A stretch of DNA of 64,000 bases from Leptospiraceae bacterium UBA2033 (GTDB lineage Bacteria > Spirochaetota > Leptospiria > Leptospirales > Leptospiraceae): contig DDBL01000133.1 of the NCBI GenBank assembly GCA_002333425.1, positions 5,740 through 69,739 on the forward strand, in the 5' to 3' direction. The notes under the pieces are model-generated. The model was given only the letters and a program-made list of their open reading frames with translations, was not told the DNA's origin and did no database searches. How positions within the stretch are numbered: the first letter of the stretch is position 1; each line of letters starts with the position of its first letter. The position numbers and the translations under genes are program-made. Shown in pieces: positions 4,975-36,312 of the stretch.

Positions 4975-6252
4975 CTAGAACGAAGCCTGGAAACGAAAGT
5001 TAAATAATGAATTTGTTCCCATTTGAGGACCATTTAAGTGTTGGTAAATTGGTTTTCCAATTTCAAACCCAGCTTTCATTTTTTCAGAAAAAGAGGGAAA
5101 ATAGAAGTTAACCCCTCCTAATAAATCTATCCTTCTTCCTCCTTGTCGATTTGGATCATTTTGTGGATCCATCGTTGGGTCTAGGTTTGGATCGGCTCCT
5201 GATATATTGTCCCATTTAGAGGACGTTATGCGCAATGTAGGAGCAAGCCAATTAAGTAAAAGATAAGAAGTCCACAGTGAAAATTCATAACGATTTCCGA
5301 ATCGATACCCATTGTCATTTTTACCATTTCGAAGTGTAACTTGAACAAAACTACCTAGTGAAAATTTTTCTTTTTTGAATATATAGCTAATTGCTGGAAT
5401 TGTATTATAGGTTCCTGTTCCCATTTGCATATTGTAGGGTGATTTTACTTTTCCCATCAGAGGCATTGTATTTTTTTCATCAATAGATCCTGTTGGTATT
5501 GTAATTCCTAACTGAACATTGATAGTATGGGATTCTTTTTCTAATAATTTATGAGCGAGTGTGAGTCCTATATCTCCAATTCCTTGTGTTCTCATAAATG
5601 ATTTTTCTAAATTTCCTGAGATCATCTGCATACTATTATTCATATAAGGTAGCATAATCATGATTGCTGTTTTGTCTGATATATTTTTCATGAGGCTAAT
5701 CATTGTCATCTCCATCTTCATCGCTACAGGCATAGACATATACCGATAGGAATTTGGATTGAGAGAGGCTACGTAGTATGAAGGTAAAGGATCTGGTGTC
5801 GTTGAAGTATTGGTCGTTGTTCCTGAGTGATCATGAATAGCCCCTGTCCCTAACTGGCTGGATGGAATTGAGCCTATTGTAGGATTATATTCAATACCCG
5901 CTAGATATTTATTTGGATCTTCTACGTTATTTCCATTGTAAAGAGAACGCATATCCATTTGCATATACATATAATCTACCATCCAATCATTCGAATTGTG
6001 TATATGGGGAAGCATTAGCCCAGCCGGGGTCATCATTGGCTCCGAATGTATATGCGGATTACTTGGCGTAACTGCTTTCTCCTTTGTGGTTTTTGTTTCT
6101 TCTAATTGTTTGACCGTAGATTTTGATTCGTCTTGGTGTTGCGGATATTTGTGGTTATGCCCTTCATGGCTTTGTCCCAGTAAAGAAAAACACGAAAGTA
6201 TGAGAATGTAACCCAAGTATATTATGGTTCGATACATTTTTTTTTGTAACAT
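4975..6252 (-). CDS. Outer-membrane beta-barrel protein with His/Met-rich N-terminal region
   Basis: Has a signal peptide; start chosen at MLQKKMYRT (6252). The mature N-terminus is HEGHNHKYPQHQ...HIHSEPMMTPAGLMLPHIHN...MYMQMDM. The body alternates in beta-strand fashion and ends with C-terminal ...FRFQASF. Confidence 0.65.
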   Translation of the reverse strand: MLQKKMYRTIIYLGYILILSCFSLLGQSHEGHNHKYPQHQDESKSTVKQLEETKTTKEKAVTPSNPHIHSEPMMTPAGLMLPHIHNSNDWMVDYMYMQMDMRSLYNGNNVEDPNKYLAGIEYNPTIGSIPSSQLGTGAIHDHSGTTTNTSTTPDPLPSYYVASLNPNSYRYMSMPVAMKMEMTMISLMKNISDKTAIMIMLPYMNNSMQMISGNLEKSFMRTQGIGDIGLTLAHKLLEKESHTINVQLGITIPTGSIDEKNTMPLMGKVKSPYNMQMGTGTYNTIPAISYIFKKEKFSLGSFVQVTLRNGKNDNGYRFGNRYEFSLWTSYLLLNWLAPTLRITSSKWDNISGADPNLDPTMDPQNDPNRQGGRRIDLLGGVNFYFPSFSEKMKAGFEIGKPIYQHLNGPQMGTNSLFNFRFQASF

Positions 6253-6263
6253 AATTTTTTCCT

Positions 6264-6692
6264 TTATTGATTTGAACCACCGGCAATCCAACAATAGACT
6301 GCTTCATTGATTTGCCGATTGGAATTGCCTGCCATTGCGCCTGTTGTAATTGCAGTATACATTCTGCTAGAACAAGGATTTCCAGGATTTGTAAATGCCT
6401 TAGTTGAATTATAGTCTGTTATATCCAAACCAGATTGTTGTGTGGCTCTAGTATGACAGCCTGACGTTGCGCAACTAACGTTTGTTCCTGCGGCGGCTAA
6501 CTTACTAAAACTAGGAGAGGTTGTACAGTTAAAGCTAGAAGTGCAAGAAGAGGAAGGGATAGAGGAAGATGGTGTCGTTGCTTTTCCTGTATGGTTTAAA
6601 ACTGCTAATGCCAGAGCTTGTTTGTTTGTATTATCATTTGTTTCGTTGCAGTTTACGGCTAATGCAAGTAAAATGGGAATTAGTATTTTCAT
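6264..6692 (-). CDS. Lipoprotein with putative c-type-cytochrome-like (PSCyt-like) domain, CX4CH motif
   Basis: True start MKILIPILLALAVNC at 6692 with RBS GGAGA. It contains the motif SCATSGCH and a C-terminus INEAVYCWIAGG resembling planctomycete-type cytochrome domains. The ORF-track N-terminus (6693-6863) runs through a repeat element. Confidence 0.5.
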   Translation of the reverse strand: MKILIPILLALAVNCNETNDNTNKQALALAVLNHTGKATTPSSSIPSSSCTSSFNCTTSPSFSKLAAAGTNVSCATSGCHTRATQQSGLDITDYNSTKAFTNPGNPCSSRMYTAITTGAMAGNSNRQINEAVYCWIAGGSNQ

Positions 6693-6728
6693 GTCTATTT
6701 CTCCTGATGGACTAAATTTACATATATA

Positions 6729-6804
6729 TGCCACGGAGGCACTGAGTCGCAGAGGGTTGAAATATATATTTATCAAACTCTCCGTGCCTTTGTGCCTCTG
6801 TGGC
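6729..6804. repeat. Inverted pair of TTGCCAC + triple-octamer elements
   Basis: The left arm is TGCCACGGAGGCACTGAGTCGCAGAG (6729-6754). The right arm is CTCCGTGCCTTTGTGCCTCTGTGGCA (6779-6804, reverse orientation). The pair is intergenic inside the minus-strand operon. Confidence 0.8.
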
Positions 6805-6816
6805 AAAATTAATGGT

Positions 6817-8169
6817 TTAATGGGAATGATTGGATGCAGATCCCAGTGTATGAAAGAAAACATTACTAAAACTTCCTTTCAATTCTAGTCTTTGTGTTAC
6901 TGCATTTGTTTCAGAATCTACAGTATACAAAATTCCATCTCCAGCAGGAACGAATATATGCATCATGGAGTCATGATTTACAGATGCAAGATGTCTATGT
7001 CCTGTTTTTGCATCTCCTACTGTGACTTGAGCTAGGAGTGTAAGACTTGGAAGGTTAGACGAATCATAAACTAAAAGTACATTTTGTTTTAAATTGGTAA
7101 CTTGATTGCCTGAACCTGAAAGTGCTGATGCGACATACAAGCGTTTACCGTCAGAGCTAAACATCATATGATCGGGGCTAAGGTCTGTTACATCTATAGT
7201 TGAAAACACATGAGTAGATGCATTTAAAATAGTTACTTTTCCTACAACATGGTTTGTGTCACTTGTTGTGTCTTTTCCTGGAATTGCAATGTATTGTCCA
7301 TTGGGAGATGCTGTTGACGGACCAGATTTTCCAGTAGCAATAGTTTCCATTGTTAGACTTGATGGGTTAACAGCGATTACACTTCCGGCAGATTGTGCGG
7401 ATATATATACTTTGCCAGAGACTGAAGAGTAACTAAAACCATGTGGTCCCGCTCCTGTTCCTAAATTTAGTGTGCTAATTACAGTCAGATAATTACTGCT
7501 AGTTGGTTCATTGTCAATTATAGAAATCGAATTGTCTGTGATATTACTAACAAACGCTCTCTTAGGACTTGTTGTAAAAATTGCTTTGTGATGTCCCTTA
7601 CCAACACATAGATGTTTGATTAAGCTTGCAGTATCTGCATCTGCTGCTCCTTTTACTCCATCTTGAATGACCGTAACAGAGGATACTCCAAGTGTATTAC
7701 ACGCATAATTAACATTATCCACACCTGCATTTCCATCATTCATTGTCCAAATTTTCCCATCTGGATCTTGGTAGACATGGACTGGACGACTTCCTGTGTC
7801 AATGTACTTCGCAAGTTTTGCTCCTGATGTTGCAATATTGATGACTGCAACTTTGTTTGAGTTTGTTAGGTTGGCGAAAATATGATCGTTCGTTGTAGCC
7901 TTAGAATCTCCAGGGTTTGAGTCTAACACAACGTTGCTTATAAAAGTATTTGCACCGGAGTTATGGGCGATAACGCTTAGATAGGGCATCGTTGTGTCTA
8001 GATTCGGAACAAACAGGTAGGAAGAATTACTGATTGTTTTGGGAATTAAACCTGCCAGACCAAGGATTGTTTGGTTGTTATTATTTGTATTTTTTTTCTC
8101 AGATCCTGTAAAGGTAAGGCTACAGGATATACTTTGTAGAATGAGCAGTGCTATTAATATTGGTTTCAT
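6817..8169 (-). CDS. Beta-propeller (YVTN/lactonase-like repeat) lipoprotein
   Basis: Start MKPILIALLILQSISC at 8169 with RBS GAGGAG. Periodic ~40-aa repeats are rich in G/S/T/V (e.g. ...GKIWTMNDGN..., ...GKVYISAQSAG..., ...GKRLYVASALSG...). The C-terminus is SNHSH. Confidence 0.6.
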   Translation of the reverse strand: MKPILIALLILQSISCSLTFTGSEKKNTNNNNQTILGLAGLIPKTISNSSYLFVPNLDTTMPYLSVIAHNSGANTFISNVVLDSNPGDSKATTNDHIFANLTNSNKVAVINIATSGAKLAKYIDTGSRPVHVYQDPDGKIWTMNDGNAGVDNVNYACNTLGVSSVTVIQDGVKGAADADTASLIKHLCVGKGHHKAIFTTSPKRAFVSNITDNSISIIDNEPTSSNYLTVISTLNLGTGAGPHGFSYSSVSGKVYISAQSAGSVIAVNPSSLTMETIATGKSGPSTASPNGQYIAIPGKDTTSDTNHVVGKVTILNASTHVFSTIDVTDLSPDHMMFSSDGKRLYVASALSGSGNQVTNLKQNVLLVYDSSNLPSLTLLAQVTVGDAKTGHRHLASVNHDSMMHIFVPAGDGILYTVDSETNAVTQRLELKGSFSNVFFHTLGSASNHSH

Positions 8170-8210
8170 AAAAATCTCCTCAGATTTCAATGGCTAATTT
8201 TATTTAGCCG

Positions 8211-8252
8211 TATTTTGTGGCAAATTTGAATTTGCCTTGTAATCGGTGTTAT
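8211..8252 (-). promoter_or_regulatory. Conserved 42-nt promoter/operator block, copy A
   Basis: The minus-strand sequence is ATAACACCGA-TTACAA-GGCAAATTcaAATTTGCCa-CAAAAT-A. That gives a -35 at 8242-8237, a 19-nt spacer containing an 8-bp dyad, and a -10 at 8217-8212. It is 41/42 identical to 12949-12990, and similarity ends right after the -10. Confidence 0.55.
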
Positions 8253-8265
8253 TTTTTGATGTGAG

Positions 8266-8658
8266 CTAACTGAATCGAGGAGGTTTAATTAGTGTTAGCT
8301 GGTAACCTTTAAGATTTGAAATTAAATTTGAAATTGGAAAAATATGTTGGGTTAGTTGAATTGTAAAGTTTGAAAAATTGTAAGATGGCAGAGTGAAAGT
8401 TTGCTTTAACAAATTAGAGAGTTCGTTTGGATTTTTAGTTTTCTTACAAGAGCAGATATGAACTGCCTTGTTTATGTCATGACAATCTGATTTTGCATAA
8501 GACTTAAAATGGGCTTCTTTTTTTGAATTGTGGTTACAGATACATACTTGCCTAACTTTTCGCATAAAACAAAGTCCTGAATCATAAATCAAACTTTGTG
8601 ATAGAACGGCAGAAATAATAATACAAGTAAAAACTGATTTTTTAATCACTTTCTGCAT
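8266..8658 (-). CDS. Small membrane-anchored Cys/His-rich protein, paralog A (130 aa)
   Basis: Start taken at MQKVIKKS by alignment with paralog B. It has a hydrophobic N-terminus and motifs CICNH, DCHD and HICSC. It shares 97/130 identical residues with 13083-13475 (hand count). Confidence 0.7.
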   Translation of the reverse strand: MQKVIKKSVFTCIIISAVLSQSLIYDSGLCFMRKVRQVCICNHNSKKEAHFKSYAKSDCHDINKAVHICSCKKTKNPNELSNLLKQTFTLPSYNFSNFTIQLTQHIFPISNLISNLKGYQLTLIKPPRFS

Positions 8659-8805
8659 GATAGATATATTTTTTACTTTAGAGTTTGTCAAGTAAGATTC
8701 GGTTTCCTAAATATTTAATTTTTAAAAATTCGTCATAGCAAATATTTCTAAACTTGATTTAAGTCAAGGATAATAATTATTATTCTCATTTTGTATCCTA
8801 TAAAT

Positions 8806-9741
8806 TTACAAATTAAAAATAAACGCAATATTAATTGAAGATTCATAAGGACGAAAATCTCTGCCACGATACAACGGATTACGGTAAGAAACCGTAAGCA
8901 TATATTTTTCACTAAATCTATAATTTACACCAAGGGTAACTTCTCTAAAAATTAATGGAACTTTATCTCCGCTTGATCTTTCTTTTTGTATTCCATTAAA
9001 AGGAGTCCTATAAGTATAACCAGAAAAAATTGAAATATGATTATTGATTATATAGGAAATAAAACCTGCGGCGTTTGTCGTTTTTTTTAGCTGGATGTTG
9101 TCTATTTGGTTGTAGGTAAATTTTTGTTCTTGTCTTAGTATATATGGAACTTCGTCGTTTGTATTGTTCGTATCACCTGTATAGCGGCTAATAGGCATTT
9201 CACCTCCTATTCTACCTACTACAGAAATCCTTTTCCATAAATAGCCAAATGCTAAATTACCTTGCGCTGTATAATAATTACTTTCTATGAATTTTTGATT
9301 TACTCCACTTGTAGGAAATCCTATTCGCCCTTCTGCAAAGAAAAAATAGTTATTCTCTGCTTGTGTTTTATAAAAAGGAAACAACTTTGAGCCAATATAA
9401 GGTTTACCGTAACGTGCAAAATCAGAACGTTCCTTTTGGTCATAATAGATATAGCTAAAATTTGCGTTTACAGTAAATAAACCTTGCATAAAAATACTTT
9501 CACCGTAAATCGTTGTGTTGTTTATATTTCTATTTTCTTGTGATCCGCGATTGTAGTCATTACTTAAAATAAAATACGTTGGCGGAAATTTACCAGTATC
9601 CTCCCCCTGACCCAAAAAGCGAACATTGAACTGAGTTGTATCAAGTCCAGAACCTGTATGATGTGCATTAAGATAAATAGATGTTAAGAGATAATACAAA
9701 GTAGCCGCTAGAATCTTCTTTTTAAAATTCATTTTCTGCAT
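8806..9741 (-). CDS. Outer-membrane beta-barrel protein
   Basis: Has a signal peptide ending ...YLNA followed by HHTGSG. Strands alternate aromatic and polar residues. The C-terminal region LGVNYRFSEKY... resembles GGVNFYFPSFSEKM of the 4975-6252 barrel. Confidence 0.6.
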   Translation of the reverse strand: MQKMNFKKKILAATLYYLLTSIYLNAHHTGSGLDTTQFNVRFLGQGEDTGKFPPTYFILSNDYNRGSQENRNINNTTIYGESIFMQGLFTVNANFSYIYYDQKERSDFARYGKPYIGSKLFPFYKTQAENNYFFFAEGRIGFPTSGVNQKFIESNYYTAQGNLAFGYLWKRISVVGRIGGEMPISRYTGDTNNTNDEVPYILRQEQKFTYNQIDNIQLKKTTNAAGFISYIINNHISIFSGYTYRTPFNGIQKERSSGDKVPLIFREVTLGVNYRFSEKYMLTVSYRNPLYRGRDFRPYESSINIAFIFNL

Positions 9742-10643
9742 CCGTGTTCTTTTATTGTTGTGTTTAGATTCCAGTTCTTTAGTATTTCATTGTAAATACC
9801 TGAATTTTCTGAAGAACTAATGATTGGGTTACTTTCGGTTAAATCGGTTATTGCCCGTAAGATTTTTGTATTATCGATTATTGTATAACTATTCGTAGTA
9901 GTATCTTTCCATAATTCAGAATATTTTAGAGCCATTTTCAAGTTTAGATTTTGATTGAGTCCTAGATTGGTTGTACAAAGTCTTGTGAATGGTATATCTA
10001 TTTTCGAAAATTGAAGTGTAAAGTTTTTTGTTTTATTATCTCCACTTATTGTTCCAGAAAAATGAACTGAATTAAAATGAAATGTAACTTTTTGCAATAT
10101 TCCCTGTGGTAAATCCGAAAGAACAAAATTTTCTGATATATTATAATAACCAAACTCATCTGATCCATTAGCGTTTAGGAATGAAGACGTTGAATAGCCA
10201 TTAGCCGTCGTAAATACTTTAATTGTTGCTGACGCGGAGCTAGAAGATCCGCTATCAGCTTCATGTAGCATAACTTGGTTAGTCGCATCAGATGAATTAA
10301 TGCTGGAACTAGTTGTAGATATATATAATTCTACTTTATCAAAACTTATTTGAGAAGAATTATTTAATGTTACTGTATAGATATCCGAAGCCACTGCACT
10401 GTTTAACTGAAAAGATTTTAAACTCTCATCTCCTTGGTCATCATAGAATAAAATCTGTAAACTTGCATTTGTTTTTATAGATTCCCGAAGAAGTGAAAGT
10501 CTGTTTATAATTATTTTTTTCTCGGTAAGACTGTTTCCTTCAGAGCCAAATGTGCAGTAACTGCTACTTAGAAGCAATAGCAAAGAACAACTAATAGTTC
10601 TTTGCCATACTTTTATATGATATAAATTAAATTTTAGTTTCAT
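9729..10643 (-). CDS. Lipoprotein, unknown function (Ser-rich)
   Basis: Lipobox LLSSSYC. There is an ATGA overlap with the upstream MbnH-like gene and an overlap with the downstream barrel gene. Confidence 0.6.
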   Translation of the reverse strand: MKLKFNLYHIKVWQRTISCSLLLLLSSSYCTFGSEGNSLTEKKIIINRLSLLRESIKTNASLQILFYDDQGDESLKSFQLNSAVASDIYTVTLNNSSQISFDKVELYISTTSSSINSSDATNQVMLHEADSGSSSSASATIKVFTTANGYSTSSFLNANGSDEFGYYNISENFVLSDLPQGILQKVTFHFNSVHFSGTISGDNKTKNFTLQFSKIDIPFTRLCTTNLGLNQNLNLKMALKYSELWKDTTTNSYTIIDNTKILRAITDLTESNPIISSSENSGIYNEILKNWNLNTTIKEHGCRK

Positions 10644-11839
10644 TGAAATGGATTACTAAATTTAGGATTAGAAATAAACTCATCATCAGTCAGAGCTTTT
10701 AAAAAATTTATCAAATCTGTTCTTTCTTGTGGCGTTAAGGTAAAAGCACGTATTTGCGGATCTTTGTTCTTATGTGATAAGCCACCGGATGCATAATGAT
10801 CGATAACCTTTCCAAGTGCTTCGGTGGAACAATTTTCAATGTCACTAGGACTTGCAGTCGTACAAGTAAAGCTTCCATCGTGCATGTAAGGATATGTCAA
10901 TGCGATGTTTCTAAGGGATGGTGGTTTAAACTTTCCAATATCAGTCTGTAAAAGGGTAACTTCATAAAGTCCTTTTTTGTTGTCAGGTAAACTAGCATAA
11001 GTCGTATCTGAAATAATTCCGTTACTGGAATAAGAAACTTCCTCAAACACAGTTCCTGCATGAGTCATCGAATTAGTATAGTTGATTCCTCCATGACAAT
11101 GAAAACACTCAGCCGTTTCTCCATTAAAAACTGCAAGCCCTCGGATAGCAGATGAGGATAAGGCGGACTTATCTCCATAATTCAAGTATTTGTCTACTTT
11201 TGATTTGCCGCTAATTAAACTTCTTTGAAAACTAGATAGCGCAAAACGAACATTTTGCTCTGTTATATTTTCAATTCCACCTCCGAACGCACTTTGGAAT
11301 AATGTTCTATAGCGACTATCGGACTTTAGGCGATTTAGGTAATCATCATTACTAAGTCCAAGTTCAATTGGACTTGTTCCAAACATAGGACCACGTGCTT
11401 GAATTTCTAAAGAAGTCATTTTGTCATTTGACCAGGTTAAACGCGTATTATACGCAACGTTTGCAAGATTCTGAGAGTTTCTGGGATGAACTTCAGCGGT
11501 AGATCCAATACCAAATGGTTTTCTATCAGTAAATGCAAATTCCTGAAGATGACAACTGGAACAGGATTGAGTTTGATTTTGCGACAAGTTTTTATCATAG
11601 AATAAAAAACGTCCCAAAGTAACTTTTTCTTCAGACATTGGATTTTCTCTCGGAACACTTGGTATTGGAAAATCATTGGGCAAATTCCAATTATATCCAA
11701 TTTGAGATCGTCCAGAAAATTGAGCAATAAAGGCTGATTGAAGTAGTTGCGAATTATTCTTATTATCCTTATTCGCTTTGTCAAAACTTGTTCCACAATA
11801 GATTGTAGACAAGAGCAGTAGTATAATGAATGATTTCAT
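10640..11839 (-). CDS. Di-haem cytochrome c peroxidase/MauG family enzyme, MbnH-like
   Basis: Start MKSFIILLLLSTIYC at 11839 with RBS GGAGGAAG. Two CxxCH motifs (CSSCH, CFHCH) are present, plus FKPPSLRNIALTYPYMHDGSF, which is typical of the CCP/MauG family. Confidence 0.85.
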   Translation of the reverse strand: MKSFIILLLLSTIYCGTSFDKANKDNKNNSQLLQSAFIAQFSGRSQIGYNWNLPNDFPIPSVPRENPMSEEKVTLGRFLFYDKNLSQNQTQSCSSCHLQEFAFTDRKPFGIGSTAEVHPRNSQNLANVAYNTRLTWSNDKMTSLEIQARGPMFGTSPIELGLSNDDYLNRLKSDSRYRTLFQSAFGGGIENITEQNVRFALSSFQRSLISGKSKVDKYLNYGDKSALSSSAIRGLAVFNGETAECFHCHGGINYTNSMTHAGTVFEEVSYSSNGIISDTTYASLPDNKKGLYEVTLLQTDIGKFKPPSLRNIALTYPYMHDGSFTCTTASPSDIENCSTEALGKVIDHYASGGLSHKNKDPQIRAFTLTPQERTDLINFLKALTDDEFISNPKFSNPFQ

Positions 11840-11969
11840 TTTCTTCCTCCAGAGAAGTAGATGCAAAAAGAAAAGTAGGATTTGAAATTGTTTGGCTCAC
11901 CTTGTTATAAAATTTAACAAAGTGAGTCAAACAAGGAACACTACTTAAATCTGTTTTAGATGTATCGTA

Positions 11970-12905
11970 TTACCGAATACTGAATGCTGATTGCGTTGTT
12001 GTTGCCCCGGTTGAAGGCACGATACCGATGTTAGAGATTATCGGCTGACAAGCAGTAGTCGCATTCCCAGTCATACAAATATTAATTCCTGTGCTAGAGG
12101 CATCTGAGCCACTAAAAAGAGCATTCAAGTCAAGAGTGATTACATCCCTTGTTGCATTAAATCCAGTTGCTTTTGTTAAAGAAATTGTAGGACGATTTGG
12201 TAAACCACATTCATTTATTGGTCCGGTAGTATTGCCTGAACAAGAACCACTTCCGAGGTGAAATTGATTTTTACTTGTTGCAGTAAATTCTATTTTTGCA
12301 AATTTATAACCACTATTCCATGCCCAATACATAGCAATATTATTTAGTGGAGAAGTTGCAGTAGATGTTGATAAATGATTTAAGTAAAATGGAACTCCGA
12401 TTTTAAATTCTACACCCACATAGTTACCAACTGCAGAAGTTCCGATAATGGATTTGTTTGTTTCAGTAGTTCCCCCACTACAACCGTTAGTCGCATCTTC
12501 AAAGTCAAGAAGTGCTACGCCTGAGTAACTTCCAAACGAGTTGGAACCAGCGCCTAATTGCCATTTTCCGTCGGTAGTGATTAAAAAATCTGACTTTGTT
12601 CCATCAGTTGATATTAATTTTACATCATGAACATAGAATCGTAAATCATTTAGAGTTGCACCTGTTGTTCCTGCGATAGTTCCAGAAAGAGTTCCGGCAC
12701 AAGAAACGTTAGTGTTTCCAGACACAACATTAAAATTGATTGTAGATACAGAAGTTGGAGAAGACGAATTGATTTGATTGGACACAAGTGCGATAGCCGC
12801 CTGTTGAGTCGGGTTTTTGTCTGTGTCTTTTTTTCCTGTAATTGTATCACAGGAATTAATTAGTGTAGATAAAAATAGAATTGTTAAAATGATAAAATGT
12901 TTCAT
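11970..12905 (-). CDS. MbnP-like 'metallo-mystery pair' four-Cys/WxW lipoprotein
   Basis: Lipobox TLINSC and a WxW motif (YWAWNSGYKF). It has several conserved-looking Cys residues (VSCAG, NGCSGG, GSCSGN, NECG). It sits immediately upstream of the di-haem MbnH-like gene. Confidence 0.7.
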   Translation of the reverse strand: MKHFIILTILFLSTLINSCDTITGKKDTDKNPTQQAAIALVSNQINSSSPTSVSTINFNVVSGNTNVSCAGTLSGTIAGTTGATLNDLRFYVHDVKLISTDGTKSDFLITTDGKWQLGAGSNSFGSYSGVALLDFEDATNGCSGGTTETNKSIIGTSAVGNYVGVEFKIGVPFYLNHLSTSTATSPLNNIAMYWAWNSGYKFAKIEFTATSKNQFHLGSGSCSGNTTGPINECGLPNRPTISLTKATGFNATRDVITLDLNALFSGSDASSTGINICMTGNATTACQPIISNIGIVPSTGATTTQSAFSIR

Positions 12906-12948
12906 AAAATATCCTTGTAAAGTATGAGTAATACTGTTTACTCTATAT

Positions 12949-12990
12949 TATTTTGTGGCAAATATGAATTTGCCTTGTAATCGGTGTTAT
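12949..12990 (-). promoter_or_regulatory. Conserved 42-nt promoter/operator block, copy B
   Basis: 41/42 identical to 8211-8252. The -35 TTACAA is at 12980-12975, the dyad GGCAAAT/ATTTGCC lies in a 19-nt spacer, and the -10 CAAAAT is at 12955-12950. Confidence 0.55.
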
Positions 12991-13000
12991 CTTTCTATAC

Positions 13001-13079
13001 GAGCGCGGGCGGCGGTTTTACGATGTAGAGACAGGTTTGAAACCTGTCTCTACGACGATGATGTCGCCGCATCGCCCAG
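13001..13079 (-). repeat. GC-clamped extended hairpin element, copy 2
   Basis: Layout is GAGCGCGGGCGGCGG, then the hairpin GTAGAGACAGGTTtgaAACCTGTCTCTAC, then CGCCGCATCGCCC. It begins 4 nt after the stop of the minus-strand gene 13083-13475, in the same relative orientation as copies 1 and 3. Confidence 0.7.
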
Positions 13080-13082
13080 AAT

Positions 13083-13475
13083 TTAAGAAAACTTAGGAGG
13101 TTTAATGAGTGTTAGCTGATAGCCTTTATGGTTAGAAATAGAATTTGAAATTGGAAATATATAATGCGTTAGTTGAATGGAAAGAACAGAGAGCGTATTT
13201 GTTGTGATGAAAAAAGTTTGTTTGATTAGATTAGAGAGTTCGTTTGGATTTTTTGTTTTTTTACAAGAGCAAACGTGAACTGTTTTTTTTATATCATGGC
13301 AATCTGATTTTACAGAAGATCTGGAATGGATTTCTTTTTTTGAGTTGTGGTTACAGGTGCATATCTGCCTGACCTTACGCATAAAACAAAGTCCAGAATC
13401 ATAAATCAAACTTTGTGAAAGGACAGCAAAGATAATAATAAAACTCAAAATAGATTTTTGAATCACGCTTTGCAT
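13083..13475 (-). CDS. Small membrane-anchored Cys/His-rich protein, paralog B (130 aa)
   Basis: MQSVIQKS... with a hydrophobic N-terminus and motifs CTCNH, DCHD and HVCSC. The C-terminus GYQLTLIKPPKFS is conserved with paralog A. Confidence 0.75.
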   Translation of the reverse strand: MQSVIQKSILSFIIIFAVLSQSLIYDSGLCFMRKVRQICTCNHNSKKEIHSRSSVKSDCHDIKKTVHVCSCKKTKNPNELSNLIKQTFFITTNTLSVLSIQLTHYIFPISNSISNHKGYQLTLIKPPKFS

Positions 13476-13669
13476 GTTAACTACGGTCTAATTCTAAACA
13501 TTCTGCTTGTCAAGGAACATTTTACTGTAACCTCATCGCCCTGCGTGATATATATCATATTAGGTTCATGATCTAGATCAATGTGCAAATATTATGAGTA
13601 GGCAAAATCTATTTTTTTTACTGAAATGAATTGCAGGGAAACGATAAATTTGTACATTGCTAAATTAGT

Positions 13670-14275
13670 ATGAAACAAATATTGCTTGTTCCTAATCTTT
13701 TAACTTTGTCTCGGATGATTCTTATTTTTCCCTCGATCTATTTTTTAGAAAAGTCTGAGTTTTTAATTGCTGCTATTCTGGTGGCTATTTTACTTTTAAC
13801 AGATTTTTTCGATGGGTTTTTCGCTCGTAAGTTAAATCAAACTTCCTATTTGGGAGCAATCCTTGATCCAGTTGCAGATAAAATGGTTGTCATTCTTTTT
13901 TTTACTCATTTGATTTTGGTGAATTCTACTTCTCCGCTTTACTATGGCTTAGTTTTGACACGTGATATTTTACAGCTTTCTGTTATTCCGATTTTACTTC
14001 TTTGGAAAAAAATTGAGTTTAAAGTGAAACCAAGTCGGATTGCAAAACTAGGTACGGCTTTGAATTTTATTATTCTCGCTTTATATGAAATGAACTTTGT
14101 AGTTGCAAAAACTCCTGAGTGGTATGCGCGGTTTCTGGATGAATTGCAGACTTTGAATGTGTTTACTTTATTTCCTTTGCTTCTCATTTCCGCTTGTATT
14201 GAAGTTTACATCTTGTTTACCTTTATCCCTAGATTCATTCAGATTTATAAAGGGACTCATGATACATTTGAATAG
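13670..14275 (+). CDS. pgsA: CDP-alcohol phosphatidyltransferase (PgsA-like)
   Basis: Carries the signature DG-x2-AR-x8-G-x3-D-x3-D as DFFDGFFARKLNQTSYLGAILDPVADK. It is multi-TM. Confidence 0.8.
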   Translation: MKQILLVPNLLTLSRMILIFPSIYFLEKSEFLIAAILVAILLLTDFFDGFFARKLNQTSYLGAILDPVADKMVVILFFTHLILVNSTSPLYYGLVLTRDILQLSVIPILLLWKKIEFKVKPSRIAKLGTALNFIILALYEMNFVVAKTPEWYARFLDELQTLNVFTLFPLLLISACIEVYILFTFIPRFIQIYKGTHDTFE

Positions 14276-14314
14276 TTTTTTATTTTATCTCTCTATTATA
14301 TAAAAGGAAAAAGT

Positions 14315-15730
14315 ATGGATATTGTAATTTTTATTATTGTGCTTCTTGGATTTATTTATGTTGGTTTACGGGAAACAAAAAAAGTAAAGGACGATAACTC
14401 CTACTTACTCGCGAATCGTAAGACTGGCTTATTTGCATTAGTCGCTACTCTTGTGATGACTGAGTTTAATACTTCTACATTACTCGGATTTTCCGCTGCT
14501 GGTTATTCAGTTGGTATCTGGGGACTAACGCTTCCATTTGTATTTTTATTCGGTCTAGGTTTTTATACGTTTACTGTTGCCAAAAAATGGAAGAAGTTAA
14601 ATGGGATGAGTGTAGCTGAATTATTTTCTCTTCGTTATGGTAGTACAGTGGGGATAACAGCCAGTTTGTTTTTGATTTTTGCTATGATTGGGTTTAGTGC
14701 GACCTATGTTAAGTCTGTCACTGTAATCTTTCAGCCATTTTTACCGGATGTAAATTCTTATATAGTCAGTGCTCTTCTGGTAGGGGTTGTGCTTCTCATG
14801 ACTCTTCGTGGTGGATTGGTTTCTGTTATTTCTACCGATATTATGGGATTTATTGGAACTATTTTTATCGTTCCTTTACTGTTTTACTTTTCCTATTCTC
14901 AAAAGAATTTAGGTTTAGAGGAAATTATTCGTGTATTTCCACCTGAAAGTTCTAATGCACTTCCTATTCGGTACATCGTTTCTCTTGTAATACTTACAAT
15001 GTTTACTTATATAGCAGCACCTTGGTACGGACAAAAGATATTTGCCGCAGCTTCTGAAAAAACGGCTTTTATTGCAGTTGGAATTTCGAGTGTTATTGTA
15101 TTTATCCTTTACGCCTTTCCTATATTAGCCGTTGCTTATCTCAGACTTAATGGTGTAACGGGGATTAACCCCGAGGAAGGAATTCCTTATATTATCAAAT
15201 CCTATTTCCCAGTAGGTCTTAGGGCTATTGCGTTTGCTGTGTTATTCGCTGCTGCTGCTACAACTCTTTCTGGAATTTGGAGTGCATTAACTACAATGCT
15301 CGTGGGTGATTTCTTATTATCCGCTAAGAACCCAAAACTAGGAAAAGATTATATAGGAAGTATGAAAATATTTTTTGGATTTGCTTTTGTATCGTGGCTT
15401 TTGGGAAATATATTTGTAGATAAAATTTTAAATAAACTCATCCTTGCGAATATTCCAATTGCTGCTCTTTCGTTTGCTCTTCTTGCTGGATTTTTTTGGA
15501 AGAGAGCATCTAGGCGAGGGGCGATATTAAGTATTGTTCTTGGACTTATTTGGGGTCTTGGTTGTTACTTGTATTTGGGGGAGGATGGTGGTTATACATG
15601 GTTTTGGGCAGCTTATGGAATCCCGTTAATTTTTGTGAGTGGTATAATTGGATCTTTCTTGTTTCCTCAGTCAGAGGAAGAAAAGAAGGCACTCGAAAAA
15701 TTTAATCTTAGAATGAAAGATGAGTCCTGA
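14315..15730 (+). CDS. Sodium:solute symporter family transporter
   Basis: 471 aa with about 13 predicted TM helices and SSF-like spacing. The call rests on overall resemblance only. Confidence 0.65.
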   Translation: MDIVIFIIVLLGFIYVGLRETKKVKDDNSYLLANRKTGLFALVATLVMTEFNTSTLLGFSAAGYSVGIWGLTLPFVFLFGLGFYTFTVAKKWKKLNGMSVAELFSLRYGSTVGITASLFLIFAMIGFSATYVKSVTVIFQPFLPDVNSYIVSALLVGVVLLMTLRGGLVSVISTDIMGFIGTIFIVPLLFYFSYSQKNLGLEEIIRVFPPESSNALPIRYIVSLVILTMFTYIAAPWYGQKIFAAASEKTAFIAVGISSVIVFILYAFPILAVAYLRLNGVTGINPEEGIPYIIKSYFPVGLRAIAFAVLFAAAATTLSGIWSALTTMLVGDFLLSAKNPKLGKDYIGSMKIFFGFAFVSWLLGNIFVDKILNKLILANIPIAALSFALLAGFFWKRASRRGAILSIVLGLIWGLGCYLYLGEDGGYTWFWAAYGIPLIFVSGIIGSFLFPQSEEEKKALEKFNLRMKDES

Positions 15731-15732
15731 TC

Positions 15733-16503
15733 ATGAATTTTCAAACTGCAATTTTACTTTTTATTTCTTTTTTATTTACTACTCTCGGGGGATTCATCGC
15801 GTTATCCGGTAGGACTTCGGACGAACGAAATCTCGGGATTGGTTGTGTTGGTCTTTTTGGTGCTTCCTTCTTTACATTTGCCTATTTTGCTTGGAGAAAA
15901 AAGAATTTTGAAAAGCAAATGTTAAAAGAGGTAAATTCTATTTCTATATTGGGTAATAAAAAATTCCATATTGATAAAAATAAAGTCTATATTATATCCA
16001 TATTATTATTTTGTTTGGGCGGATTCCTTGCTTATTTTGTAAGACTGAATTTAGTTTTTACTATTTTGACAAGTCTTATGGGGCTAACGGGGCTTATCCT
16101 TTTTTTGGGGATATTATTCGGATTTTTTGCTAGAGAATATTTGGTTTTTGAGTTTGATGGGATTCGAATGGGTTTTAAAAATTACTCTTATATTATTCGA
16201 TGGGATAATATTATGAAAGTTTCTACTGAGGAATGGCATAACAATATGGCAGTCTTCATAAACTTAATTAACCCGGAGGATATTACACGTTATCTCTACG
16301 TGAGTAAAGGTCGAAGAGATAAAACTGTCAAAAAAATTTATTCTAAGATTGGATGGAATCTAAGTATGACAAATTCGCATCTATTGATTTTACCTGAAAG
16401 ATTTGGACTAGATGTTGGGTATTTTTTTAAAGCCTTAGAGAGTTATTTGCATTATCCAGAAAAGAGACAGGAATTGAAACAAACTAAAAAAATTGGATCA
16501 TGA
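15733..16503 (+). CDS. Hypothetical membrane protein
   Basis: 256 aa with about 4 TM segments followed by a soluble C-terminal domain. It is tightly packed between flanking genes. Confidence 0.55.
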   Translation: MNFQTAILLFISFLFTTLGGFIALSGRTSDERNLGIGCVGLFGASFFTFAYFAWRKKNFEKQMLKEVNSISILGNKKFHIDKNKVYIISILLFCLGGFLAYFVRLNLVFTILTSLMGLTGLILFLGILFGFFAREYLVFEFDGIRMGFKNYSYIIRWDNIMKVSTEEWHNNMAVFINLINPEDITRYLYVSKGRRDKTVKKIYSKIGWNLSMTNSHLLILPERFGLDVGYFFKALESYLHYPEKRQELKQTKKIGS

Positions 16504-16509
16504 GGTTTG

Positions 16510-17970
16510 ATGGATTCATTTAACAATTTATTACTAGCCATTTCTATACTACTCGTTCTGAGTATTCTTGCAAGTAAAGTGACTGGTAGATTAGGAGTTC
16601 CTACTCTTTTAATTTTCTTAGGAATTGGGATGCTTGCTGGTTCTGATGGAATTGGCGGAATTTATTTTGATGACGCTGCCATTACGCAAAATGTTGGTAT
16701 AATCGCTCTTATCTATATATTATTTTCTGGTGGATTGGATACAAATTGGAACAAAGTAAAACCTATATTTTGGCAGGGATTTTCGTTAGCTACTTTGGGA
16801 GTATTTATAACTGCGATTGTTGTAGGTATTTTTGTTCATAAAATTTTGAATTTTACTTTGTTTGAAGGAATTTTAGTCGGATCAATTGTAGCTTCCACAG
16901 ATGCTGCTGCGGTTTTTTCGATTATGCGCTCTCAAAAAGTGCAGCTCAGTGGACAAATTCGAGAGACGATAGAATTGGAATCTGGTAGTAATGATCCTAT
17001 GTCGGTGTTTTTGACTATCGCACTTCTCAGGCTTGTCAAAGAGCCTGATGCAGGTATGATGGATTTAATTATTTTATTTGTTCAGCAAATGGGACTTGGT
17101 GGGGTAGGGGGATTTTTATTTGGAAAAGTTTCCATTTTTTTGATTAATAAAATTAAGTTACAATACGAAGGACTATATCCAGTTTTGACAATTACGATTG
17201 CTTTACTTAGTTATAGTTTAACTTCTTATATTGGCGGTAATGGGTTTCTCGCTGTTTACCTCACCGGTCTTATTTTATCAGATAAGGATTTTATTCATAA
17301 GAAAAGTTTGATTAGGTTACACGATGGCGTGAGTTGGCTTATGCAGATAATTATGTTTTTGCTCTTGGGTCTACTTGTATTTCCAAAACAACTATTAAGT
17401 GTAGTTTGGATTGGAATTGTACTTTCTGTAATTCTTATTTTTATCGCAAGACCTCTTAGCGTTTACATAAGTTTAGCCTTTGCAAAATTAAATTTTAAAG
17501 AAAAAGCAATGATTTCTTGGGTTGGACTTAGAGGATCTGTTCCGATTATTCTCGCAACATTTCCCAAACAAGCTGGAATTGAGAAAGCTGATTTAATTTT
17601 TAATTTGGTTTTTTTTATTGTGATTACTTCGATTTTATTCCAAGGAACACTTCTTCCTGCTGTTGCAAAATTTTTTAAAGTCATCGAAAAAGATTCTAAC
17701 CAACAACCGAAAATTATTCCCTTTCAACCAGAAGAAATTGGCAAAACGGATAATGATTTAGTAACTGTTACACTTTCTAAAGAATCTAAACTAATTGGAA
17801 AGCAGATTGTAGAAGTAGGGCTTCCTGAAGGTGCTCTGATTGTACTTCTCACTAGAGGAGAAGAGTATGTAGTTCCTCGGGGCGCAACTCAACTCATGGA
17901 AAATGATATTATCCTTATTTTAGCTGGTCGAAAGTTACTTCCCAAAATCCACGAAATCATGAAAGTCTGA
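16510..17970 (+). CDS. nhaP2: K+(Na+)/H+ antiporter, CPA1/NhaP2-type, with C-terminal TrkA-C domain
   Basis: N-terminus LAGSDGIGGIYFDD...LFSGGLDT. The C-terminal region VTLSKESKLIGKQIVEVGLPEGALIVLLTRGEE is TrkA-C-like. ATG 16510 is preferred over TTG 16507 because of GAGG spacing. Confidence 0.85.
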   Translation: MDSFNNLLLAISILLVLSILASKVTGRLGVPTLLIFLGIGMLAGSDGIGGIYFDDAAITQNVGIIALIYILFSGGLDTNWNKVKPIFWQGFSLATLGVFITAIVVGIFVHKILNFTLFEGILVGSIVASTDAAAVFSIMRSQKVQLSGQIRETIELESGSNDPMSVFLTIALLRLVKEPDAGMMDLIILFVQQMGLGGVGGFLFGKVSIFLINKIKLQYEGLYPVLTITIALLSYSLTSYIGGNGFLAVYLTGLILSDKDFIHKKSLIRLHDGVSWLMQIIMFLLLGLLVFPKQLLSVVWIGIVLSVILIFIARPLSVYISLAFAKLNFKEKAMISWVGLRGSVPIILATFPKQAGIEKADLIFNLVFFIVITSILFQGTLLPAVAKFFKVIEKDSNQQPKIIPFQPEEIGKTDNDLVTVTLSKESKLIGKQIVEVGLPEGALIVLLTRGEEYVVPRGATQLMENDIILILAGRKLLPKIHEIMKV

Positions 17971-18067: not shown

Positions 18068-19474
18068 ATGAACAGAGAAAAACTTTTTGGACTAAACCCA
18101 AATTACTTCACAGTAGGTTATGCACATCTAATTAAAACAGCAATTTTTTTGCGTTATGGGATTAATCCAGATCAAAAGATTTCTCTTTCGACAAAACCAT
18201 CTCCCATTTTTAAAGACTTAGAAATTTTTCAAAAAGGTGTAGGAACTCAAGTAAAAGACGATGGAGTTCTAGTTGGAACTATTCGTATGGGATATGGTCA
18301 TCATCGAATGGCATATGCACTTTATTCTTGGGTTCTCGCAAAAAAGTTAAAACCATATTTGCATGATTTGCTTGGAATTGAGTCAAACGAAGCTGTTGCG
18401 ATTAAAGAAATCGATGGGCTTTACAGTCAAATGAGTCGAGTTTCTTCTGAGTGGGGCGGACCGATTGAATGGGCTTGGGGTCAGCTCACTGCACAAGGAA
18501 ATATTGGTTCGTTGTATCTATCAAGTTTACTTGCGGAAAGTTATGCGAATATGATGTCTGATCTTTCTCGTGAGTTACCGTATATTTCTACTTATCCGCT
18601 CAATGGACAAATTGCAGTAGAGGCTGGTTTTAAAAATGTTGTTCATTTGATTTGTGATAATTTTCCACAATATTACTTACTTGTTCCTGGTGCTTTGAAT
18701 TTAGTTCAGAGTCCAGCTTCCTATCATAAGTTTATTGATATGGGAGTTCCAAAAGAGAATTTGCATATTGCTGGACATTGGGTGTCCGAGCCTCTGGTGA
18801 CTAACGTTATGGTTGATTCAATTGCACGTATTGAGAGAATTCAAAAACAAAAACCTAAACGCCTTTTACTTCCGATCGGCGGAGCAGGTGCACAGAAAAA
18901 TTATACGATTAGTTTTATTGATAATATCAAAAATAAACTAAAGAATGGAGAGTTACATTTATTTATCAATACGGGTGATCATCTTGGTATGTTTGAGATT
19001 CTAAAGACTGAAATTGAAAGAATGGGTTTGAATTATCATATAGTAAGTAATTGGGATAGTCTTTTGGAATTTTGTAAAACTCATAGTTTTGATTCGGTGG
19101 ATGAGTCAAAACTGAAACCAGTTACTTTATTTTCTTATCAAAATTATTACGAAGCGTTTACTACGACTGATTATTTGATTCGTGTATCGGATATTTTGGT
19201 TACCAAACCATCCGAGTTGGCGTTTTATCCAATTCCTAAGTTATTTATTCGTAGAGTGGGAGATCATGAAGCTGCTTCTGCTTTTCGTTCGATGGAAATT
19301 GGAGAAGGAACAACCGAATGTAGAGAGCCAGAGCACGCATTTGAAATGGTAAAACTTCTAACCGAACAAAATCAAATTTTACAACGTATGAATGAATGCG
19401 TTATTCGCAATGCTAAGTATGGAATCTACGATGGCGCAAAAAATGCAGTTGAAATTGCGATGAAGACAACTTAA
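18068..19474 (+). CDS. Hypothetical protein, possibly GT-B glycosyltransferase (MGDG-synthase-like)
   Basis: The G-rich N-terminal motif GTIRMGYGHHRMAYAL and a later LLLPIGGAGAQ resemble the MurG/MGDG synthase layout. The resemblance is weak. Confidence 0.35.
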   Translation: MNREKLFGLNPNYFTVGYAHLIKTAIFLRYGINPDQKISLSTKPSPIFKDLEIFQKGVGTQVKDDGVLVGTIRMGYGHHRMAYALYSWVLAKKLKPYLHDLLGIESNEAVAIKEIDGLYSQMSRVSSEWGGPIEWAWGQLTAQGNIGSLYLSSLLAESYANMMSDLSRELPYISTYPLNGQIAVEAGFKNVVHLICDNFPQYYLLVPGALNLVQSPASYHKFIDMGVPKENLHIAGHWVSEPLVTNVMVDSIARIERIQKQKPKRLLLPIGGAGAQKNYTISFIDNIKNKLKNGELHLFINTGDHLGMFEILKTEIERMGLNYHIVSNWDSLLEFCKTHSFDSVDESKLKPVTLFSYQNYYEAFTTTDYLIRVSDILVTKPSELAFYPIPKLFIRRVGDHEAASAFRSMEIGEGTTECREPEHAFEMVKLLTEQNQILQRMNECVIRNAKYGIYDGAKNAVEIAMKTT

Positions 19475-36231: not shown

Positions 36232-36312
36232 GGGGCGATTCGGCGAACTCTATTGTAATAAAGACGCACAGCCATGCGTCTCTACAGCATTCCACAAAAC
36301 GCCGACCGCGCT
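36232..36312 (+). repeat. GC-clamped extended hairpin element, copy 3 (degenerate)
   Basis: Layout is GGGGCGATTCGGCG, then the hairpin AGACGCA/TGCGTCT, then CGCCGACCGCGCT. It begins 2 nt after the upstream stop. Confidence 0.6.

Follow-up and report, generated by a model that had tools for sequence, protein, structure and literature searches.

The question raised by this locus is whether two neighbouring gene modules, in which different sets of exported proteins follow closely similar small Cys/His proteins, constitute a system for handling copper in the cell envelope and, if so, in which direction the metal moves. The locus lies in a 64,000-nt stretch of DNA from Leptospiraceae bacterium UBA2033 (GCA_002333425.1, DDBL01000133.1, forward-strand positions 5,740-69,739), referred to as the window. 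A preliminary description of this DNA had resolved nine consecutive minus-strand genes into two modules (module B, 13475-8806; module A, 8658-4975), and all nine open reading frames (ORFs) were present as described; the motifs that it had read in their translations (CSSCH and CFHCH, WAW, CX4CH, and the His/Met-rich N-terminus of one barrel) were also seen. On balance, we lean toward regarding the two modules as a copper-handling locus of the cell envelope that is specific to Leptospiraceae and most likely serves acquisition; its parts are interchangeable, and a LIC_11090-family protein heads each unit. Start sites were re-placed using the lipobox or signal peptide together with the Shine-Dalgarno site, which gave ATG 8169 (not 8190) for A2, 6692 for A3, 6252 for A4, and 11839 for the MbnH gene. 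The nine genes are as follows.

13083..13475, minus strand: B1, small Cys/His protein of 130 amino acids, LIC_11090 family (PF28271; NF047775, 66.5 bits, E=2e-18)
11970..12905, minus strand: B2, MbnP-family copper-binding lipoprotein with a WAW motif (TIGR04052, 223.9 bits; PF20243, 127.8 bits)
10640..11839, minus strand: B3, MbnH-family di-haem MauG-like enzyme, a lipoprotein with CSSCH and CFHCH (TIGR04039, 430.4 bits)
9729..10643, minus strand: B4, Lsa30-like (LIC11087-like) lipoprotein, unknown fold (NF047544, E=6e-14)
8806..9741, minus strand: B5, LIC11086-type outer-membrane barrel (NF047618, E=3e-68)
8266..8658, minus strand: A1, LIC_11090-family paralogue of B1, 130 amino acids (97/130 identical to B1; identical to family member P0006)
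6817..8169, minus strand: A2, beta-propeller lipoprotein with conserved His (AlphaFold2 (AF2) model, predicted local distance difference test (pLDDT) 84.6, predicted template-modelling score (pTM) 0.81; Foldseek)
6264..6692, minus strand: A3, LIC11213-type small lipoprotein, cytochrome-c-like, with CX4CH (NF047812, 97.7 bits)
4975..6252, minus strand: A4, Phenol_MetA_deg-type outer-membrane barrel, Met-rich (PF13557, 27.0 bits; cut-off 22)

The link to copper starts from B2 and B3. The score of B2 exceeded the cut-offs of both models (140 bits for TIGR04052 and 27 bits for PF20243), and its nearest solved structure was MbnP (7L6G, E=1e-20), with WAW aligned to WNW. The same alignment also paired the Met before WxW, the His of HxGS, and six Cys positions; this Met and His are possible copper ligands. 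B3 scored 430.4 bits against a cut-off of 362.85 for TIGR04039, and merely 167 against 443.85 for the MauG model TIGR03791, while its PDB matches ran from MbnH (6E1C, E=1.5e-79) through the best cytochrome c peroxidase (5.5e-36) to MauG (3e-16); it carries two CxxCH haem-c sites. The genes are adjacent on the same strand, 130 nt apart, and this pairing was retained in all related loci. The preliminary description had staked its interpretation on 11970-12905 and 10640-11839 belonging to the MbnP and MbnH families, and both were placed there above the curated cut-offs. In characterized systems, a Trp of WxW is converted to kynurenine by MbnH, and the copper site of MbnP needs that kynurenine (PMC11951088).

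NCBIfam models named after LIC11090, LIC11087, and LIC11086 matched B1, B4, and B5, respectively, and LIC11090-LIC11086 of L. interrogans (LIMLP_05270-05250) has the same five-gene order as module B; these family matches and the gene order together identify module B as the counterpart of the L. interrogans genes. Since B1, B4, and B5 all fell below the respective cut-offs (66/75, 52/500, and 230/350 bits), they represent diverged relatives from another Leptospiraceae lineage. B4 scored 52 bits with NF047544 (E=6e-14), far under the cut-off of 500, and a B4 homologue comes after MbnH in most loci. The match of B5 to NF047618 (230.4 bits against 350) was full-length and in the same operon position as LIC11086, so that B5 is best described, judging from sequence, as a diverged relative of the LIC11086 outer-membrane transporter family. 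HHTG is invariant in the B5 family immediately past the predicted cleavage site (between LNA and HH); the signal-peptide cleavage sites of B5 and A4 referred to here are both predictions. The cargo genes of each module are densely packed, with overlaps in module B of 4 nt between the MbnH gene and B4 and of 13 nt between B4 and B5.

The cargo of module A is different. In A2, H131, H193, and H243 are invariant and eight further His nearly so, including a C-terminal HSH. Foldseek matches of the A2 model comprised YVTN propellers, AztD, cd1 nitrite reductase, and thiocyanate dehydrogenase (a copper enzyme), among which AztD was the best functional structural match (E=3.6e-11, target template-modelling (TM) score 0.71, 14% identity); profile searches returned weak YncE matches only, and PDB sequence searches of A2 and A3 gave nothing useful. 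A3 scored 97.7 bits with NF047812 against a cut-off of 100, with a weak match to PSCyt1 (E=0.027). Its C74, C79-H80, and M120 are invariant, the window's clade having CX4CH instead of CXXCH, and a distant A3 homologue in one related locus (L014) carries the canonical CTNCH; from these features A3 is best read as a putative small haem-c-like lipoprotein. In A4, the PF13557 match spans profile positions 44-168 of 242, and the orthologues carry precomputed PF13557 assignments. Met makes up 7.1% of A4 (background, 1.95%), with 25 Met within residues 70-280 (12% over 210 residues), and the Met and His positions are invariant among 6 orthologues. QSHEGH is invariant just past the predicted signal peptide, so that cleavage at the predicted site would leave X-X-His at the N-terminus. 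Met clusters and N-terminal His motifs are typical copper ligands.

The preliminary description had also suggested, from C-terminal patterns, that barrels B5 and A4 are related to each other, which could not be confirmed from sequence: BLASTP gave E=2.8 and hhalign, with shallow family alignments, a probability of 0.2%. Neither barrel had a sequence match in profile searches of the PDB, and B5 had no Pfam match. LIC11086 has been modelled as a Pput2725-like 12-strand barrel with an N-terminal plug (PMC5406399). The one link between the two barrels is indirect, through the membership of A4 in the MetA Pfam family and the Pput2725-like model of LIC11086.

The component common to both modules is the small head protein. 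The preliminary description had called the two first genes paralogs, and the 97/130 identity of A1 and B1 was reproduced by BLASTP (E=2e-71). B1 and A1 scored 66.5 and 54.4 bits (E=2e-18 and 1e-14) with NF047775 (cut-off 75), and PF28271 is precomputed for family members P0006 (aligned sequence identical to A1) and P0001 (98% identical to B1). The coding DNA of the two genes is 78% identical, and the synonymous divergence (dS) of 0.95, with a nonsynonymous divergence (dN) of 0.15 and a dN/dS of 0.16, indicated that the duplication is old and that A1 and B1 are both under purifying selection. A profile search of 1.84 billion representative proteins found 45 clusters of this family at E<=0.001, in which all named members were from Leptospira or Leptospiraceae. 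Among 37 members including A1 and B1, C39, C41, C69, C71, P126, and P127 (a C-terminal Pro-Pro) are invariant, and N42, H43, S45, E48, H50, C59, H60, H67, and K72 are almost invariant; the family can be written as an N-terminal hydrophobic helix followed by CxCNHxSxxExH...DCH...HxCxCKK...G[YF]xLxLIKPP[RK].

On which side of the membrane this Cys/His domain lies was judged from the same 37 members. The N-terminal transmembrane segment (TM1) had a mean Kyte-Doolittle value of 1.85, and a second hydrophobic stretch, with a mean of 0.93, is not a membrane helix; the N-terminal flank averaged a charge of +1.5, versus +0.3 across the 15 residues following TM1. The most likely arrangement is therefore an N-in anchor (or signal peptide) with a putatively periplasmic Cys/His domain, like all cargo proteins. 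The strongly basic character of the Cys/His domain prompted us to consider a cytoplasmic zinc-finger, two-helix hairpin topology, which was not retained as the leading model since the second segment is non-membrane and the N-terminal flank is more positive than the stretch past TM1.

Conservation of this plan was examined in about 20 related loci (given L numbers below), with linkage counts taken from loci with downstream sequence. In every such locus, the small gene was directly followed, on the same strand, by parts of one set, and its retention beside such cargos in relatives, raised in the preliminary description as a check, was true at every related locus examined. With S, P, and H for the small, MbnP, and MbnH genes, the common form was S-P-H-B4-B5 (L004, L008-L010, L013, L015, and L137-L142, with the same gene order in L005), reaching members 27-31% identical and Leptospira sp. 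GIMC2001. S-P-H was found in L016 and in L014, where a short reverse-strand gene separates P from H; S-P-H-A3 in L141 and L142; and S-A2-A3-A4 in the window, L001-L004, L137, and L139. The small gene stood directly upstream of MbnP-MbnH for B1 and for every distant member examined. The modular plan was thus confirmed, and its parts recombine between genomes. Since A3 is shared with MbnPH loci, module A is tied functionally to the MbnPH system. Divergent from the small gene of L014 lies a further module (5457-8926, minus strand) of an A3-like CXXCH lipoprotein, an MbnH-like di-haem enzyme, B4, and B5, without MbnP, suggesting that direct pairing of the small cytochrome with an enzyme of the MbnH type is possible.

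In the window's sub-clade, the modules occupy a recurrent site beside genes for a CDP-alcohol phosphatidyltransferase and a sodium:solute symporter, at which the tandem combinations were modules B and A, module B with a second MbnPH module, and module B with a cytochrome c/SCO1/PCuAC block. The last combination was found in L008-L010 (14815-20393), where two large cytochrome-c-domain proteins, SCO1, YceI, SCO1, and PCuAC (LpqE-like) are encoded directly past module B, in the place of module A; the SCO1/YceI/SCO1/PCuAC block forms a cluster of copper chaperones that serve the assembly of oxidase. L014 likewise has SCO1 and cytochrome c genes close to module B (13646-17166). These neighbours, together with the 7.1% Met of A4 and the invariant His motifs of the barrels, strengthened the link to copper that the preliminary description had drawn.

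The conserved left flank of the locus comprises a DUF6937/DUF6938 gene, the CDP-alcohol phosphatidyltransferase and sodium:solute symporter genes, and genes for a 256-amino-acid uncharacterised protein and a Na/H exchanger; the DUF6937 and DUF6938 paired-domain protein (468 amino acids) is encoded at 18068-19474 (plus strand) of the window (E=4e-29 and 3e-86, respectively). In three distant lineages (among L005, L006, L013, and L016), a 7TMR-DISM receptor gene, fused to a SpoIIE phosphatase or beside a HATPase gene, divergently adjoins the small gene. A conserved uncharacterised gene of 109 amino acids lies directly upstream of the small gene in L005, L006, L007, and L013, standing between the small gene and the receptor gene in L006 and L013, and MarR genes lie downstream in L005 and L013. 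The 7TMR-DISM, 109-amino-acid, and MarR genes may encode regulators of the operon.

Between the small gene and the first cargo gene there are 177 nt in module B and 96 nt in module A, and these spacers, together with the regions upstream of the small genes, contain the following elements.

12949..12990, minus strand: conserved 42-nt block of module B, ATAACACCGATTACAA-GGCAAATTCATATTTGCC-ACAAAATA, with its hairpin/palindrome at 12974-12957
8211..8252, minus strand: conserved 42-nt block of module A, with its hairpin/palindrome at 8236-8219
12926..12943, minus strand: second small hairpin of module B, GAGTAA-N6-TTACTC, before the MbnP ribosome-binding site (minimum-free-energy fold)
8192..8209, minus strand: second hairpin of module A, GGCTAAATAAAATTAGCC, then Shine-Dalgarno GAGGAG and ATG 8169 (RNAalifold consensus)
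13508..13513, minus strand: TTGACA, -35-like hexamer upstream of B1
8686..8691, minus strand: TTGACA, -35-like hexamer upstream of A1
13001..13077, minus strand: GC-rich nested-hairpin insertion, similar to repetitive extragenic palindromic (REP) elements or miniature inverted-repeat transposable elements (MITE), between the B1 stop codon and the block (RNA fold z=-6.3)

The two blocks are identical at 41/42 positions despite the dS of 0.95 between the small genes. Each contains a perfect palindrome, GGCAAAT-N4-ATTTGCC (core GGCA-N10-TGCC, stem of 6-7 bp), and an 18-mer of the block occurred twice in the 64-kb window, both times in the blocks, against 0.05 expected. The block follows small genes in the loci of 13 relatives, with nine distinct sequences including the window's two, and is limited to the window's sub-clade; remoter family members are without it. 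The stem showed one compensatory change (A-U to U-A) and, in two sequences, G-C to G-U, a covariation score that was matched in 9/500 shuffles; the G-U pairs favour a hairpin in the sense-strand RNA. In the second hairpin of module A (GGCTA...TAGCC), the five basal pairs were unchanged in 5/5 module-A sequences, and the hairpin at 12926..12943 is its positional counterpart.

The preliminary description had named the block a conserved operator. Its conservation stood. An operator role is one possibility, an RNA hairpin fitting at least as well as a promoter or operator; an operator in the loose sense of a control element is plausible. Reading GGCA-N10-TGCC as a sigma-54 site was discarded on inspection by eye, since GG and GC are spaced 14-15 apart and not 12. 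A MerR-like reading is possible in the window (TTACAA-19 nt-CAAAAT, with the dyad inside the spacer) and was kept as an alternative; against a MerR/sigma-70 promoter, neither the -10-like element nor the spacing (17-20 nt) was conserved among the 9 sequences. No regulator gene was found among the Pfam-scanned flanking genes, the scan having covered these genes and not the whole window. There was no Rfam match beyond two chance-level miRNA matches, and no minus-strand terminator-like site indicative of an intrinsic terminator, the hairpins being without a following U-run. A metagenome-wide scan for a 14-base pattern of the block returned 120 loci, all by chance and none with the full block.

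Upstream of the small genes, TTGAC was invariant in 11/11 aligned regions, including those of second-module heads, about 35-40 nt before the start, so that each module appears to own a promoter. No recognisable Shine-Dalgarno sequence precedes the ATG of either small gene (13476-13482 and 8659-8665, minus strand), and the first cargo genes do have one (AAGGA for MbnP and GAGGAG for A2); transcripts of the head genes may lack a leader or be translated weakly. A TTGAT-N3-4-ATCAA palindrome lies about 60-70 nt upstream of TTGACA at window positions 13569-13580 and 8753-8768 (minus strand) and recurs at the same relative place in L003, L139 (module A head), and L141 (second head). It could be a putative binding site controlling the head genes; TTGAT-N4-ATCAA was not enriched in the window (7 sites versus 7.8 expected).

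The nested-hairpin insertion is present in module B and most relatives, and appears as an alignment gap in module A. It starts with GGGCG[AT]T[GT]CGGCG and ends with GCCGCC(C)GCGCTC, with variable inner stems (e.g., GTAGAGACAGGTTTCAAACCTGTCTCTAC). Further copies were found at about 280-355 and 36232-36300 (plus strand) of the window and after the stop codons of small genes in L001-L003, L008, and L139; at least two copies stand directly after a stop codon. The start motif matched three times against 0.02 expected, in a genome of 30-38% GC. By its sequence features, the element looks like a repeat of the REP/MITE type.

Expression data exist for the L. interrogans counterpart. Under 1 mM H2O2, the log2 fold changes of LIC11086 to LIC11089 were -1.68, -2.45, -2.30, and -2.10 (a 3- to 5-fold fall), and that of LIMLP_05270, equated with LIC11090 by gene order, was +0.46 (a 1.4-fold rise); a SenC/SCO1 gene also fell in this dataset (PMC7567364 supplements). 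The rise of the head and the fall of the cargo indicated a regulatory boundary between them. The co-regulation put forward in the preliminary description is doubtful for the small gene. As weak evidence, the fall under H2O2 fits a role in uptake and supply to respiration better than one in defence.

How, then, might the two modules work? In module B, copper would be admitted across the outer membrane by the TonB-independent LIC11086-type barrel, with its predicted His-His mature N-terminus, and captured by the MbnP lipoprotein at a kynurenine site made by MbnH, with the Lsa30-like lipoprotein as an accessory. Module A would provide a second route, in which the Met-rich MetA-type barrel with its N-terminal X-X-His lets copper pass, the His-rich propeller lipoprotein, with a fold like that of the metallochaperone AztD, binds the metal, and the haem-c-like lipoprotein serves as redox partner by reducing Cu(II) or by donating electrons to enzymes of the MbnH type. 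The head protein, anchored in the inner membrane by its N-terminal helix and with two CxC pairs and four His facing the periplasm, would most likely take Cu(I) from the cargo and hand it to membrane cuproenzymes or chaperones (Sco, PCuAC). A TTGACA promoter would drive each module, and the hairpin block would set cargo expression separately from that of the small gene. In other bacteria, MbnPH pairs accompany outer-membrane transporters, and copper represses the MbnP, MopE, and CorA systems, which serve its uptake (PMC3621798). What the sequences establish are the family assignments, the conservation, the linkage of the genes, the reassortment of the parts, and the constraint on the block; that copper is the metal of module A and of the small protein, which way it is transported, how the head is oriented in the membrane, and how the block works are inferred.

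Several points weigh against copper acquisition with a periplasmic head. Neither module contains an inner-membrane transporter, a TonB system, or a copper-responsive regulator, and Met/His-rich barrels like PcoB/CopB classically belong to resistance loci. For the small protein, no relative of known function was found by Pfam scan of the 37 members, PDB profile search, or Foldseek; its AF2 model was confident for the N-terminal helix alone (residues 2-31, pLDDT about 95), with 58-74 for the remainder; and the net charge of +8 on the Cys/His domain would equally suit a cytoplasmic nucleic-acid-binding zinc finger. The module-A heads of L004 and L137 are degenerate, having kept both CxC pairs and KPP and lost the His residues, so that His ligation is not essential everywhere. 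In L143, a distant propeller homologue and a MetA-type barrel occur without the small gene. Cd1 nitrite reductase, lactonases, and S-layer propellers scored much like AztD against A2, and with such similar E-values the fold is informative and not specific. The H2O2 response spans 2145 differentially expressed genes, and no metal was varied in that study (PMC7567364).

Four other explanations were weighed against acquisition. That the modules protect against excess copper, by periplasmic sequestration, a change of redox state, and release through Met-rich barrels, seems unlikely to us. The Met/His-rich N-terminus and Met-rich lumen of A4 do resemble PcoB/CopB, and the A3 haem protein with a Cys/His-rich periplasmic protein could buffer copper or shift its redox state; however, no efflux ATPase, resistance-nodulation-division (RND) pump, multicopper oxidase, or CsoR/CueR was found beside any of the approximately 20 loci, where the neighbours in relatives are instead the oxidase-assembly copper chaperones SCO1 and PCuAC. 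Furthermore, the known Leptospira unit csoR-copZA sits elsewhere in the genome (PMC11442865), oxidative stress represses and does not induce the L. interrogans cargo genes, and the copper repression of the MbnP, MopE, and CorA systems serves uptake (PMC3621798). It is less probable again that the substrate of module A differs (zinc, another metal, or a hydrophobic compound, as for MetA/FadL-type barrels), the head and block having been borrowed by recombination. AztD, the best functional match of the propeller, is a zinc chaperone, phenol degradation gave the Pfam family of A4 its name, and the propeller-barrel pair of L143 lacks both the small gene and MbnPH. On the other hand, 12% Met over 210 residues is typical of Cu(I) sites and not of zinc sites, A3 stands directly after MbnP-MbnH in L141/L142 and an A3-like gene before the MbnH-like gene in L014, and the shared, constrained cis-block implies common control of both modules.

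The other two explanations concern the small protein itself. Its role could be that of a membrane-tethered sensor or regulator of periplasmic copper or redox state, which controls the cargo via the block, either by itself, its basic, zinc-finger-like domain contacting the palindrome or the RNA hairpin, or by way of a receptor acting as partner. Its gene invariably comes first, with a 50-290-nt gap to cargo genes that are otherwise tightly packed or overlapping, and has its own invariant -35 hexamer; the block, very strongly constrained, lies exactly between it and the cargo; its L. interrogans homologue is expressed independently of the cargo; and the charge of +8 and the divergently adjacent 7TMR-DISM genes of the three distant lineages point the same way. 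Nevertheless, we consider a sensor quite improbable, because charge and hydropathy across the family put the domain outside the cytoplasm with about 7 residues inside, Pfam, PDB profile, and Foldseek searches revealed no fold that binds DNA or RNA, the protein motifs extend through the whole family and the block through a single sub-clade only, and 75%-identical paralogues head wholly different cargo. The least probable of all, and very unlikely in our estimate, is a membrane-anchored thiol/redox helper, haem-attachment factor, or electron donor for the c-type cytochrome of each module. A haem-c protein does occur in all head-led modules (MbnH in B and A3 in A), the unusual CX4CH of A3 might need a dedicated factor, and an anchor with Cys pairs recalls CcmG/ResA-type helpers; yet a thioredoxin-like fold and CxxC motif are both missing from the small protein, the CxxCH sites of MbnH are canonical and served by the general maturation system, MbnH homologues of other phyla work without such a partner, and the His-rich motifs look like metal ligands.

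Copper acquisition may be taken one step further, as a conjecture that we hold only tentatively and consider unlikely. The LIC_11090 protein would be a new inner-membrane-anchored periplasmic Cu(I) acceptor or sensor, and a universal adaptor head on which various outer-membrane import modules can be exchanged (MbnP/MbnH-barrel, propeller-cytochrome-barrel, and MbnPH-cytochrome); the 42-nt block would be an RNA or DNA switch that uncouples cargo from head; and the whole would amount to TonB-independent copper import unique to Leptospiraceae, pathogens included.

Every gene of the locus belongs to a named NCBIfam or Pfam family, and the biology of MbnPH is known; no paper was found on LIC11086-LIC11090 as a copper system, on the function of LIC_11090, or on the tandem modular plan, nor anything published on a second tandem module. 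MbnP and MbnH are widespread, and their physiological partners outside methanotrophs are poorly understood; a Cys/His membrane protein whose gene always lies immediately upstream offers a specific candidate for the protein that receives the copper next. The five-gene unit is also present in pathogenic Leptospira, in which Lsa30 (LIC11087/LIMLP_05255) has been described as a laminin/fibronectin adhesin, LIC11086 as a vaccine candidate, and LIC11088 (LIMLP_05260) as 'maug', after MauG of methylamine metabolism, the others being annotated as hypothetical. The fixed place of these genes in an MbnPH operon suggests that the annotations of Lsa30 and LIC11088 may miss the primary function, and re-reading the unit as a copper-acquisition system would, if true, change the interpretation of the adhesin, vaccine, and MauG data. 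The locus also bears on how copper reaches the respiratory chain in an obligate aerobe, and the recombination of its parts and the extreme conservation of its intergenic block make it well suited to studying how modular operons evolve and how expression is controlled within them.

Among known systems, MbnP/MbnH pairs occur in methanotrophs and other Proteobacteria, often with the TonB-dependent MbnT and the sigma/anti-sigma factors MbnI/MbnR (PMC3621798; PMC11951088). B2 and B3 are true members of these families, adjacent and in the same order, with WxW, two CxxCH sites, and a linked outer-membrane transporter gene. The window differs in being without a TonB-dependent transporter, an extracytoplasmic function (ECF) sigma/anti-sigma pair, or methanobactin genes, and in having instead a small TonB-independent barrel, an Lsa30-like lipoprotein, and a lineage-specific Cys/His head; moreover, B2 and B3 are both lipoproteins, and an MbnPH-free module A stands in tandem. 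MopE/CorA with MopG/CorB (Methylococcus, Methylomicrobium) similarly place an exported kynurenine copper protein beside a di-haem peroxidase-like gene for copper-repressed acquisition (PMC3621798; PMC11951088), although their copper protein has another fold and no sequence relation, and neither a small head nor a barrel is found. The A4 barrel, preceded by its Met/His-rich N-terminal region, shares this trait with PcoB/CopB, but belongs to Pfam Phenol_MetA_deg, whereas PcoB/CopB sit in resistance operons with multicopper oxidases. A2 resembles AztD (6N01, 6CMK, and 6CK1) in its propeller fold (target TM about 0.7), in lying in the periplasm, and in the role in metal hand-over proposed for it, but has only 11-14% identity, is a lipoprotein with no ATP-binding cassette (ABC) transporter partner, and matches AztD barely better than other propellers. 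The proposed membrane anchor, periplasmic Cys/His, and hand-over of a thiophilic metal would make the small protein analogous to Sco1/SenC, PCuAC, and the MerP-to-MerT relay, from all of which it differs in showing no sequence or fold similarity and in having CxC rather than CxxxC or CC.

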